A stretch of DNA of 23,777 bases from a virus (Duplodnaviria; Heunggongvirae; Uroviricota; Caudoviricetes), in IMG/VR virus record IMGVR_UViG_2698536484_000001, positions 1 to 23,777 of that record. One strand, 5' to 3'. Shown here in pieces: positions 20,759 to 23,329 of this stretch; the stretch's first letter is position 1, and every line of letters begins with the position of its first letter. A program made the position numbers and the translations under genes. Under the pieces are notes generated by a model. That model saw nothing but the letters and a program-made list of their open reading frames with translations, made no database searches and was not told the DNA's origin.

Positions 20759-21283
20759 TTACCGGGACTGTTCTATTTGTCGGACACCAGCCAACTGGTT
20801 ATTCGCCTTCTCGATGGCAGCCAACAATGGGTTAATCCACAGAACAGCCTGGCAATATGTCAACGTTCTGGTGGTAGTGGCACGATCACCGGCTGAGTCA
20901 ATGTCCCCGGAATCGGCGTGCAATGCGCTGGCGCGTAAACGGTTCGCGTAGTTGAGCAACCCGACAGCAATATCAACAGGAACAGGGAAATCACAGTTCT
21001 TTTCACGGAGCAGAACCTCACGGTATTTGATGACTGTCTTCTCGTGACCGATGTCGACCAGAGAATTTAATCGGCTTGCGTTTTCTGCTATCTGGTTAAA
21101 ACGATTGAAGTTTAATGCCTGATTAGCTATCACTTTCCCTTGATATTCAGCTTCACCTTCCGCTTTATCAGCCCGCAACTTTTCTGCCTGATACTTGCTG
21201 TGGTAATGGTTTGCAGACCAGACGAGCGCCCCAAAGGCAGAGAAGAAAAATGCCGCGATGACAATCTTATAAGTCAGCTTCAT
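20759..21283 (-). CDS. Rz: Rz-like i-spanin
   Basis: 174-aa ORF overlapping the endolysin 3' end; N-terminal transmembrane segment (IVIAAFFFSAFGALVW) followed by WSANHY (compare lambda Rz WAVNHY) and a coiled-coil-like region; contains an embedded +1 lipoprotein ORF. Confidence 0.75.
   Translation of the reverse strand: MKLTYKIVIAAFFFSAFGALVWSANHYHSKYQAEKLRADKAEGEAEYQGKVIANQALNFNRFNQIAENASRLNSLVDIGHEKTVIKYREVLLREKNCDFPVPVDIAVGLLNYANRLRASALHADSGDIDSAGDRATTTRTLTYCQAVLWINPLLAAIEKANNQLAGVRQIEQSR
20860..21006 (-). CDS. Rz1: Rz1-like o-spanin lipoprotein embedded in Rz (+1 frame)
   Basis: Hand-translated +1 frame inside Rz: GTG start at 21006-21004 (GAGG 9 nt upstream), MKRTVISLFLLILLSGC-STTRTVYAPAHCTPIPGTLTQPVIVPLPPER, stop TGA 20862-20860. 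Signal peptide with LSGC lipobox and a Pro-rich mature part with a second Cys, as in lambda Rz1. There is no internal ATG in Rz, so a GTG start is required; 48 aa is too short to appear in the ORF track. Confidence 0.65.
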   Translation of the reverse strand: MKRTVISLFLLILLSGCSTTRTVYAPAHCTPIPGTLTQPVIVPLPPER

Positions 21284-21743
21284 TTACCACCCCACCAGCA
21301 TCTTTAAACCTGGAAATCAGGTCACCGATTTTATGTTCATACTGACCGTAACCTGCACCAGGTAACGACGCCCAGATATTGCTGCAACGGTCGATTGCCT
21401 GACGAATATCGCCACGGTCAATCATCGGTAAAGCGCCACGCTCTTTAATCTGCTGCAGCGCCACAGCGTCCTGACTTTCTGGCGAAAAATCTTTCAGGCC
21501 AAGCTGCTTACAGTAGGCATCCCACCAGCGTGAAAGAAGCTGATACCGGCCTGCGGCTGTTGATTTAAGCTTCGGGTTTAGCGTGACAAGTTTGCGAGGG
21601 TGATCGGAGTAATCAGTGAACAACTCACCTCCGACGATAACGTCATAACCGTGATTACGTGTCGGTTGTCGCCCGTTATCCGTTCCTTCTGACCATGCCA
21701 CCATATCCAGGAAAGCTTTACGTTGGGAATTTAGTGTCTGCAT
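21267..21743 (-). CDS. R: Endolysin, lambda R-type lytic transglycosylase
   Basis: 158-aa protein is near-identical over most of its length to phage lambda R as I recall it (NSQRKAFLDMVAWSEGTDNGRQPTRNHGYDVIVGGELFTDYSDHPRKLVTLNPKLKST...RYQLLSRWWDAY...), including the catalytic Glu in AWSEGTD. Confidence 0.9.
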   Translation of the reverse strand: MQTLNSQRKAFLDMVAWSEGTDNGRQPTRNHGYDVIVGGELFTDYSDHPRKLVTLNPKLKSTAAGRYQLLSRWWDAYCKQLGLKDFSPESQDAVALQQIKERGALPMIDRGDIRQAIDRCSNIWASLPGAGYGQYEHKIGDLISRFKDAGGVVNEADL

Positions 21744-21746
21744 GAA

Positions 21747-22106
21747 TTACTCCTTAGAGCCACCAAACTTGTTACCGATTACTCGCATTGCAGCCCCACG
21801 AATAGCATCGACACCGATCAGCCCAACACCACCACCAATGGCAACAGAAAGCGATTTAGGCCATCCGACATACTCAAGAGCGGATGCAAAAGTCAGCGTC
21901 AGAGCACCACAGAGCAAAATCTCAAGCGTTTTTCGTTTCCAGCCGCCGCCACCGCCAAAATAGGCAATGCGCAAGCCAGCCATAACAATTGACATAACCA
22001 CTGCGCCCAACGGCGTATCTCCACGCCACCAACTTTGTAAGAGTTCCAGTAAGTCAGGCCAGGAATGAGGAGCATTGTGCATTTTCATACTTCCCACCTC
22101 CGCCAT
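21747..22106 (-). CDS. S: Class I holin (lambda S family); probable true start at 22088
   Basis: Three predicted TM segments and a charged C-terminus; alignable by eye with lambda S (RIAYFGGGGGWKRKTLEILLCGALTL vs lambda [26 protein letters not shown]). Track ORF begins MAEVGS-MKMH, but the first six codons encode the Shine-Dalgarno GGAGGTGGG, so the real starts are probably Met7 (22088) and Met9 (22082), an M-K-M dual start like lambda S107/S105. Confidence 0.8.
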   Translation of the reverse strand: MAEVGSMKMHNAPHSWPDLLELLQSWWRGDTPLGAVVMSIVMAGLRIAYFGGGGGWKRKTLEILLCGALTLTFASALEYVGWPKSLSVAIGGGVGLIGVDAIRGAAMRVIGNKFGGSKE

Positions 22107-22533
22107 TACGGGGTGTTGTTGAAAGGCGGGCCCTGCGTATACGCCCGTAGGATTGGGTTATGAGCCGTCCTTCGGTGGGCCCTGAATACAAAAAAAGTTC
22201 GCCATAGCGAACCTTGTTAAATTTGTTAAAAAAGGAGGTTATTTAACATAATGTACGTTATAGGAACCACACGATCCCCGCTCGCAATAGATTTGCGATG
22301 AAAGGCCTATTTAATCAACTTAAGTGGTCCAGAATGACGAAATTCGAGTGAATAAAAGGTGCATAAAAAAGGGCAAAAACTGCATAGCGTTTTTTCGCAG
22401 CGAAAGCCCTGTTTTATTAACTTTTCCCCAGAATGGGGCAATAAAAAAGGCCCCCTTGCGGAAGCCTCTTCGTGATGAACTGTTTTCAACAGATATCAGG
22501 CTAATCGGCTTTTTGGAATTCCACAACTATTTT
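22107..22533 (-). promoter_or_regulatory. Late regulatory intergenic region (candidate late promoter, Q-utilisation site, leader)
   Basis: 427-bp non-coding gap between the 113-aa gene and the holin, the canonical place for the Q-dependent late promoter; contains several GC stems with U tracts (GGGGC-cuuuuuuauu-GCCCC, plus 22435-22454; CCCC-auucu-GGGG) and a 10-bp palindrome GCGTATACGC (22135-22144). Exact -35/-10 elements could not be assigned. Confidence 0.4.
22190..22212 (-). terminator. tR'-like intrinsic terminator upstream of the holin
   Basis: Minus strand reads GUUCGC-uaug-GCGAAC followed by UUUUUUU: 6-bp stem (plus 22197-22212), 4-nt loop, 7-U tract, about 85-100 nt upstream of the holin start, analogous to lambda tR' downstream of pR'. 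Confidence 0.4.
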
Positions 22534-22906: not shown

Positions 22907-23329
22907 TTATGCCGCCGAGCAGCTCCTACGCAAAGTCCTGATAGCCTGAGGCTTTGACTGAACCGACTGATCCATTTCGAGCACCACATCCAGCATGGCT
23001 AAGCAACCGTCAATAAATCCCTCTGCCGCCTGAAGCCTCTTCAGAACGTGGGTGTGAGATACGCCGAGCTTCTCACCCATCGCCCGCACGGGCATGGCCT
23101 GGACGTAATGCCACTCAAGGAGCGTGCACAGATACGGATCTTTTTTCTTCAGGCAGCTCATAGCGGAGTTGATGATAAGACCGTCATTGTCACTGCATTT
23201 CAGCCTTCCAGACTGCGTCGCGGGTAGCAGATTCTTAAACCCGGCTGCAACAGGAGGAAAGTAGACGCTACCACCTTCACTCGCTGCCCAGCCACCCCAG
23301 CGCTCTAAAACCTGTTGAATATTACGCAT
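22907..23329 (-). CDS. Late-gene antitermination protein Q (QuuD / phage 82-21 type)
   Basis: 140-aa protein begins MRNIQQVLERWGGWAA...AAGFK and ends ...LKRLQAAEGFIDGCLAMLDVVLEMD, matching the pattern I recall for the E. coli DLP12 QuuD Q-family antiterminator (MRDIQMVLERWGAWAA...AAGFK...KRLQKAEGIIEGML..LD..LEMD); sits upstream of the lysis cassette as expected. Confidence 0.75.
   Translation of the reverse strand: MRNIQQVLERWGGWAASEGGSVYFPPVAAGFKNLLPATQSGRLKCSDNDGLIINSAMSCLKKKDPYLCTLLEWHYVQAMPVRAMGEKLGVSHTHVLKRLQAAEGFIDGCLAMLDVVLEMDQSVQSKPQAIRTLRRSCSAA

Follow-up and report, generated by a model that had tools for sequence, protein, structure and literature searches.

A probable o-spanin gene with a GTG start embedded in the Rz gene of an SfV-like Escherichia coli prophage, and its possible kinship with overlapped spanin genes

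In phage lambda, the o-spanin Rz1 is encoded in an embedded layout, in the +1 frame of the gene of its i-spanin partner, Rz, and its start codon is ATG. Other embedded pairs are described in SpaninDB: HK225, ZF40 and mEp237 make up one embedded i-/o-spanin family, and the o-spanins of HK225 (44772-44919) and mEp237 are 48 amino acids (aa) long, with a mature part of 32 aa (Kongari et al. 2018, PMC6139136). The curated start of the HK225/mEp237 o-spanin model is GTG. A different arrangement, the overlapped layout, is seen in SfV, SfIV, SfII and Mulock, whose o-spanins belong to the 'Mu' o-spanin family of SpaninDB and to LysC (PF23793), the Pfam family of P2 LysC-like overlapped o-spanins; there the o-spanin gene is one long open reading frame (ORF; 105-145 aa as annotated) that extends beyond the end of a 130-aa Rz. 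According to the SpaninDB census, no spanin family combines the embedded layout with another, and the layouts are concluded to have evolved in parallel (PMC6139136). Here we analyze a 23,777-nucleotide (nt) stretch of phage DNA (IMG/VR record IMGVR_UViG_2698536484_000001; hereafter the window), in which the locus belongs to an SfV-like Escherichia coli prophage. Its Rz gene contains, in the +1 frame, a 48-codon ORF that is very probably the o-spanin gene of a two-component spanin pair, starting at GTG 21006. The features concerned are the following.

Positions 21283..20759, minus strand: Rz (i-spanin) coding sequence, 174 aa, with an N-terminal transmembrane helix, a helical periplasmic part, a linker and a C-terminal helix.
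Positions 21006..20860, minus strand: Rz1 (o-spanin) coding sequence in the +1 frame of Rz, 48 codons plus TGA, with the start GTG at 21006-21004 and the stop TGA at 20862-20860.
Positions 21015..21019, minus strand: Shine-Dalgarno-like GAGGT, 8 nt ahead of GTG 21006.
Positions 20959..21006, minus strand: predicted lipoprotein signal peptide MKRTVISLFLLILLSG, with K2 and R3 in its n-region, followed by a hydrophobic core.
Positions 20967-20956, minus strand: lipobox LSG/C.
Positions 20863..20958, minus strand: mature o-spanin, 32 aa, with a Cys predicted to be lipidated, Ser at +2, seven Pro and a second Cys at mature position 13.
Positions 20858..20871, minus strand: frame junction, where the final o-spanin codons PP-ER-TGA lie over the Rz codons R139-T140-L141-T142.

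The existence of an Rz1-like ORF in this frame had been proposed in an earlier note on the window, and its translation is exactly as given there: with GTG read as Met, it is MKRTVISLFLLILLSGC/STTRTVYAPAHCTPIPGTLTQPVIVPLPPER (whole: MKRTVISLFLLILLSGCSTTRTVYAPAHCTPIPGTLTQPVIVPLPPER). The TGA stop is built from the TTG codon of L141 and the A of the ACA codon of T142, and the ORF ends 101 nt before the Rz stop, i.e. it lies wholly inside Rz, as in the embedded architecture. The peptide has the attributes of a lipoprotein destined for the outer membrane, namely a lipobox Cys (LSG/C), Lys and Arg in the n-region and Ser, not Asp, at +2. Its putative partner matches the 'Rz-like spanin' family phrog_214 from end to end (expect value, E, 1.6e-58), and has an N-terminal transmembrane domain (TMD) together with a periplasmic domain whose helices are predicted with low confidence. 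Both lie in a lysis cassette in which S, R and Rz are followed by terS and terL, a context that fits a two-component spanin.

Taken alone, the window provides modest evidence that the ORF is a gene. Long +1 ORFs arose in 70% of the sequences obtained by shuffling the codon order of Rz, and about 4% of the shuffles yielded a +1 ORF in which a lipobox-like motif, loosely defined, is followed by at least 25 further codons; to that extent, the ORF could be a chance by-product of the codon composition of Rz. The ORF was judged real because the comparative evidence is decisive. We fetched 157 related loci from genomes and viral contigs (Rz 38-100% identical) and found the +1 ORF, with the same stop and the lipobox, in 154 of 162 sequences (161 loci and the window). 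These correspond to 123 unique sequences, from more than 20 enterobacterial genera that include Escherichia, Salmonella, Citrobacter, Enterobacter, Kluyvera, Kosakonia, Pantoea, Erwinia, Serratia, Rahnella, Tatumella and Providencia. The +1 frame is thus open in related Rz genes, a point on which the earlier note had made its proposal depend. In all 154 intact sequences, exactly 2 nt separate the +1 stop from the TYCQAVLW motif that follows it in the Rz frame. The mature peptide has 32 aa in 121 of the 123 unique sequences, with seven or eight prolines and the consensus CSTTRTVYVPAQCTPIPGTLTQPVIAPLPPAR; its second Cys is at mature position 13 in 117 of them, and the residue at +2 is Ser or Thr in every one and never Asp. 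The lipobox L[VATS]GC is present in nearly all relatives.

The pattern of variation is that of a coding frame. In the mature region, amino-acid identity is 0.77 when the DNA is read in the +1 frame vs 0.52 in the Rz frame, and nucleotide variability is concentrated at the third position of the +1 codons (0.317, as against 0.091 and 0.099 at the first and second positions), which points to purifying selection on the +1 frame. This family-wide conservation and the wobble-position pattern refute a chance origin, which we consider vanishingly unlikely.

The start codon deserves separate consideration, since the Rz gene (525 nt) contains a single ATG in any frame, its own start; the earlier note had correctly stated that Rz lacks an internal ATG and had proposed a GTG start. 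Three in-frame candidates, GTG 21021, 21006 and 20994, precede the lipobox in the window. Numbering codons back from the lipobox Cys, we compared the candidate positions (all on the minus strand) in the 123 unique relatives.

Position -32: no start codon in the window; ATG in 58 of 123, but a stop intervenes in 33.
Position -24: start in the 17 of 123 that lack one at -16, TTG (ATG in one).
Position -21: GTG 21021 in the window, the start of the 53-aa form in GenBank; GGG in 88 of 123.
Position -16: GTG 21006 in the window; GTG in 95, ATG in 7 and TTG in 4 of 123.
Position -12: GTG 20994 in the window; GTG in 99 of 123, and an Ala codon or a non-start Val codon (GTA) in the other 24.

A start codon is therefore found at -16 in 106 of the 123 relatives, and in 89 of the 123 a GGAG lies 10 nt before the homologous start; together with the curated SpaninDB model, which is the same, this makes GTG 21006 the best-supported start. 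The sequence of the overlapping frame bears on the point as well. The -16 codon overlaps CGT-GAA, which encodes Arg93-Glu94 of Rz, and the Arg codon over -16 is CGT in 90 of 92 cases, vs 28% CGT among all Arg codons of these genes; CGT is the only one of the six Arg codons that yields a +1 start codon (GTG). An ATG at -16 would need His, Asn, Asp or Tyr in Rz, and the relatives that start with ATG have His, Asn or Tyr there. The start at -16 is not ATG because the codon overlaps a conserved Arg codon of Rz, and the locus illustrates cleanly how an overlapping frame can impose a start other than ATG.

Could the gene be real but start elsewhere, at GTG 21021 (53-aa form) or GTG 20994 (44-aa form)? 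Both codons are in frame ahead of the lipobox and both have been used by annotators (BAI31869.1 for the former; the PGAP start of allele P0138 for the latter), and a GTG at -12 is as widespread as stated above. We nevertheless regard either start as unlikely: -21 is GGG in most relatives, and in the window GTG 21021 is part of the Shine-Dalgarno sequence itself and has none upstream; a start at -12, besides being an Ala or non-start Val codon in 24 relatives, would leave no charged n-region and would lie at least 20 nt from the Shine-Dalgarno sequence. By contrast, the -16 codon varies among start codons only, and the Arg codon that overlaps it is 98% CGT.

In distant members of the family (L051, L054-L059, L062-L067 and L073-L079, from Serratia, Rahnella, Pantoea, Erwinia, Tatumella and Providencia), there is no start codon at -16; its role is taken by a TTG (ATG in one), conserved eight codons further upstream, and the n-region is longer and rich in Lys and Arg (LNT/LNI...). 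Inconsistent annotation of o-spanin starts was also noticed in other phages: the Rz1 of OS31 (L164) is given as 108 aa from a far-upstream TTG, and RZ1 of SfII (L002) as 145 aa vs 113 aa in SfV (L162), with near-identical mature parts. The OS31, SfII and SfV starts are probably mis-set.

Several observations weigh against the identification of the 48-codon ORF as an o-spanin gene starting at GTG 21006. The 48-aa peptide scores 18.5 bits against Pfam LPAM_1, under the cutoff of 20 bits, and by itself also stays below the gathering cutoff of LysC (PF23793), which is 27 bits over the full profile. GTG 20994, conserved as a codon in the proportion given above, may serve as a minor start, and all candidate starts give an identical mature lipoprotein. 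The counts among relatives (154 of 162, 123 unique) come from sequences that are not phylogenetically independent. Lastly, the putative function as an o-spanin of the Rz1 family is carried over from lambda Rz/Rz1.

The closest described counterpart is HK225. The Rz of the window is 66.9% identical to that of HK225 over 127 of 174 aa and its Rz1 76% identical over 46 of 48 aa, both above the SpaninDB family criterion (at least 40% identity over at least 40% of the length). As in HK225, mEp237 and ZF40, the o-spanin is embedded in the +1 frame, with 48 aa, a 32-aa mature part and a GTG at the homologous codon (the 48-aa/GTG model applying to HK225 and mEp237). The N-terminal 47 residues of Rz differ from those of HK225; otherwise nothing essential does. 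Rz contains a mosaic breakpoint near 21167: S, R and the first ~116 nt of Rz, which code for the TMD (21167-22100, minus strand), are 86-89% identical in DNA to SfV, SfIV and SfII, then the similarity to the SfV group stops abruptly and the remainder of Rz is HK225-like.

The pair in the window would do the same job as that of lambda, from the same embedded +1 layout. In both systems, a small Pro-rich outer-membrane lipoprotein with one further Cys is encoded inside an i-spanin gene whose product has an N-terminal TMD and two periplasmic Cys; the window Rz, unlike that of lambda, has 174 aa and carries a LysC-like module at its C-terminus. The kinship with the Rz1 of lambda and 21 implied by the earlier note did not hold up: neither Rz1 nor Rz matched the Pfam families of lambda-type Rz1 and Rz (Phage_lysis) at E up to 1, and BLASTP of Rz1 against HK022/HK97-type Rz1 gave no match. 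The window Rz1 is a putative analogue of lambda Rz1 in function, without detectable homology to it.

The same note had called the gene unannotated, which is true of part of the databases. GenBank lists the 53-aa form starting at GTG 21021 under BAI31869.1 ('putative lipoprotein Rz1 precursor', E. coli O103:H2 12009) and KRR57707.1; RefSeq/PGAP and the closest phage records omit the gene, and in the RefSeq re-annotation of E. coli O103:H2 12009, Rz1 has been dropped and Rz has become a 'hypothetical protein'. In phage records Rz is called 'endopeptidase Rz', a label older than the spanin model. That gene callers miss such genes, as the note also remarked, is well documented: 196 o-spanins had been left unannotated by them in the 2018 census (PMC6139136). 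As an annotation point the finding has little weight, missed embedded o-spanins being a known and common failure of callers; it is correct but ordinary, because the gene is in GenBank and the HK225-type family is curated in SpaninDB. Even so, more than 120 E. coli genomes have, in RefSeq/PGAP, a 'hypothetical' i-spanin and no Rz1, and an Rz i-spanin of this type is covered by no model in either Pfam or NCBIfam.

The relationship with LysC proteins puts the identity of Rz1 in a different light, and involves one further feature.

Positions 20762..20869, minus strand: C-terminal module, Rz residues 139-174, RTLTYCQAVLWINPLLAAIEKANNQLAGVRQIEQSR; its homologue is the C-terminal half of the overlapped LysC/SfV/Mu-type o-spanins.

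On the LysC profile, the +1 ORF occupies positions 1-33 (16.9 bits) and Rz residues 136-173 occupy positions 31-68, and the two matching stretches sit at the same place in the DNA. When they were joined into a hybrid (...VIVPLPP + RTLTYCQAVLW...), the score rose from about 17 bits for each half to 43.1 bits, over positions 1-68 of 69, well above the cutoff; similarly, the score against the o-spanin family phrog_456 went from 29.8 to 52.9 bits. The Rz C-module also matches phrog_3001 (E 3e-7). Against SfV Rz1, the hybrid gives a gap-free alignment of 73 residues that runs through the junction (42% identity, E 9e-16), and the two share the signal, the TRTVYVP...P(I/L)P..LT core and the LTY...IR.IE C-module. 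The body of the SfV i-spanin is 34% identical to the window Rz over residues 1-126 (E 1e-19), and it is at residue 126 that the alignment stops, since SfV Rz (130 aa) ends there. Unlike the SfV-type protein, the window o-spanin ends after PLPPER, its C-module being in frame with Rz. The earlier note was thus right in seeing an embedded o-spanin lipoprotein in the +1 ORF, but what this ORF encodes is only the N-terminal half of a LysC-type o-spanin; the remainder is read in the Rz frame. The cysteines are placed differently too: GQCN in the module of the SfV-type o-spanin, TYC in Rz and AQC in Rz1 in the window. One may speculate that the disulfide pattern was rewired after the module moved.

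Searching phages by tblastn, we found two-frame loci in, among others, HK225, mEp237, Flotzy, LLS, ZF40 and OS31, and one-frame loci in, among others, SfV, SfII, SfIV, Mulock, APSE and Yersinia phages; an exhaustive phmmer search with a natural fused allele, P0138, brought up further single-frame o-spanins that span the junction. P0138 itself (78 aa, named LysC by NCBI) was rejected as an ancestral single-frame form, as it is a single-strain indel allele of the same locus. P0162 was also discarded as a single-frame link: the gene is not on record, and all 31 relatives have match lengths of 3n-1, hence a split frame, so that P0162 is probably a sporadic indel. In P0159, P0160 and P0163, likewise rejected, the frame switches at other points.

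A profile split between two frames could also betray a -1 ribosomal frameshift near PLPP, which would produce an 82-aa LysC-like o-spanin alongside the 48-aa product or in its place; the protein made by a -1 shift at CCA-CCA-G would indeed match LysC end to end. However, the junction has no X XXY YYZ slippery heptamer, the position of the stop is strictly conserved, the single-frame versions in databases stem from indels at different sites, and SpaninDB takes the 48-aa product as complete. We hold such a frameshift to be extremely improbable.

The same split might instead be the mark of a decayed, frameshifted LysC-type o-spanin gene, the 48-codon ORF and the long Rz being non-functional remnants that are tolerated as spanins are dispensable in many conditions. 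Broken or fused prophage alleles do occur (L027, L072, P0138, P0069 and P0139). Yet the split layout is kept in the 123 unique sequences from more than 20 genera, and also in the isolated phages HK225, mEp237, ZF40, PSTCR3 and vB_EcoM-606R2; both frames are open, the stop is fixed, the +1 frame is under coding-type constraint and the Rz C-module is invariant. Decay is therefore very unlikely, though a shade less so than frameshifting.

As to the sporadic alleles in public genomes, 1-nt indels fuse Rz1 to the Rz C-module in some of them (P0138; L004, i.e. CP157170.1, is listed among these alleles), for which PGAP uses the name 'LysC'. Other sporadic indels fuse Rz to Rz1 (P0069, P0139 and L072), and L027 has a stop inside the Rz1 signal peptide. 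Two Pantoea loci, L080 and L081, match the C-module only, but they are masked with runs of N and are uninformative.

The closest overlapped relatives of the window-type pair form a lineage of Providencia-type prophages and viral contigs (L167-L179; P0202). Unlike the window, they combine a short i-spanin (118-126 aa) with an o-spanin that is read in a single frame and has an additional DSDGK linker. P0202 has a normal lysis cassette, with a 118-aa i-spanin and an o-spanin gene that overlaps the i-spanin gene by 71 nt, and the same layout recurs in at least 12 viral contigs, which are 80-90% identical. The i-spanin of the overlapped lineage can be aligned with residues 22-129 of the window Rz (E 3e-20), after which it ends; the counterpart of Rz 139-174 is the C-terminus of the o-spanin (53% identity for L167, E 5e-10). 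A hidden Markov model built from the Rz C-module only also finds these o-spanin C-termini (44 bits for P0202, 39 for L168, 29 for P0211 and 22 for P0221, Z = 10^6).

The two layouts were also compared between Providencia-type loci. The embedded pair of Providencia stuartii L079 and the overlapped pair L168 are 60.5% identical in the i-spanin and 62% identical in the N-part of the o-spanin, and the C-terminus of the L079 Rz is 47% identical to that of the L168 o-spanin (E 5e-8). At the DNA level, they differ by a 13-nt indel directly after the PLPP codons and by TAA vs CGA at the end of the short i-spanin. In the Providencia phage PSTCR3, the layout is embedded and the signal peptide is nearly the same. 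By the threshold of Kongari et al., the embedded and overlapped proteins would, on sequence comparison, constitute one i-spanin family and one o-spanin family in two layouts.

A broader proposal can be built on these data, namely that the HK225-type embedded and the LysC/SfV/Mu-type overlapped pairs are one family whose layouts interconvert by a 3n+1 indel after PLPP together with loss or gain of the stop of the short i-spanin, so that a helical module of ~35 aa moves between the outer- and inner-membrane subunits, either way. We see the chances that it is right as evenly balanced. Against it, the C-module-only model gives SfV/Mu-type proteins low scores (13-17 bits, for SfV-type proteins at the colinear position). 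Which way the layout changed can moreover be argued on both sides: the deep outgroups are overlapped, yet the i-spanin of overlapped L168 is a nearer relative of the embedded Providencia Rz than the window Rz is, and the mosaic make-up of phage genomes blurs the picture. Within the literature covered, a search found no later description of a link between embedded and overlapped spanins, which is not proof of absence.

Rz itself belongs to a large group, with 1603 homologues, most among those listed being ~165-195 aa long; no Pfam or NCBIfam model matched it above cutoff. The NCBIfam search returned generic lipoprotein-signal noise only, and the Rfam search of the window gave no match. An AlphaFold2 (AF2) model, used for secondary structure alone, places helices at residues 4-76, 82-94, 103-121 and 143-173, with low confidence (predicted local distance difference test, pLDDT, 56; predicted template modelling score, pTM, 0.26). 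In this low-confidence model, helix 143-173 is the LysC-like module, and the lowest-confidence, unstructured stretch, residues 117-139, falls within the codons overlapped by the mature Rz1 coding region (~109-141), which fits an o-spanin overprinted on a tolerant linker of Rz.

In this part of the window, the DNA shares 99.5% identity with four induced E. coli phages (vB_EcoM-606R2 and relatives); among 5426 complete E. coli genomes, 123 carry prophages that match it at 97.9-100%. The cassette, in the order S-R-Rz-terS-terL on the minus strand, and the DNA ahead of it have the following additional features.

Positions 23329..22907, minus strand: antiterminator Q-like ORF, followed by a small ORF, a terminator-like hairpin and then holin S.
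Positions 22106..21747, minus strand: holin S of the lambda family (PF05106, E 1.2e-27), annotated as 113 aa in relatives.
Positions 21743..21267, minus strand: lambda R-like endolysin R, with a 17-nt overlap with the start of Rz.
Beyond Rz in cassette order, minus strand: terS (PF03592), then terL.

The holin ORF begins with MAEVGSMKMHNAP (22082-22106, minus strand) and has an MKM motif at 22088, resembling the dual start of lambda S105/S107; the start annotated in relatives is that of MKM, and another in-frame ATG lies 6 codons further upstream. The hairpin between the Q-like ORF and the holin gene (22194-22215, minus strand) has 9 bp, contains GC pairs and is followed by a run of T; its position resembles that of lambda tR', the target of Q antitermination.

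By analogy with known systems, the pair could operate as follows. Ribosomes would start at GTG 21006 from the GAGGT sequence 8 nt upstream, and, from what is known of lipoprotein biology, the 48-aa prolipoprotein would be exported, lipidated at Cys17 and cut behind LSG by signal peptidase II. As the residue next to the lipobox Cys is Ser, the lipoprotein would be passed on to the outer membrane by the Lol system. As in lambda Rz/Rz1, the 32-aa Pro-rich mature peptide would bind the periplasmic C-terminal part of the inner-membrane Rz and, once holin and endolysin have removed the murein, the spanin complex would disrupt or fuse the outer membrane. The C-terminal helical module of an ancestor-like LysC-type o-spanin is here translated as the last 36 residues of Rz.

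The bridge between the two layouts is the sole part of this analysis that a specialist might find new. If true, it would be the first family to span the embedded and overlapped layouts, a combination reported not to exist by Kongari et al. 2018, and would open a route of one or two steps to the embedded layout. A further consequence would be that the C-module works whichever partner carries it. The frame-switch relation thus bears on the origin of embedded spanin genes, and may amount to a natural experiment in domain transfer, bearing on which of the two subunits has to carry the C-terminal helix.

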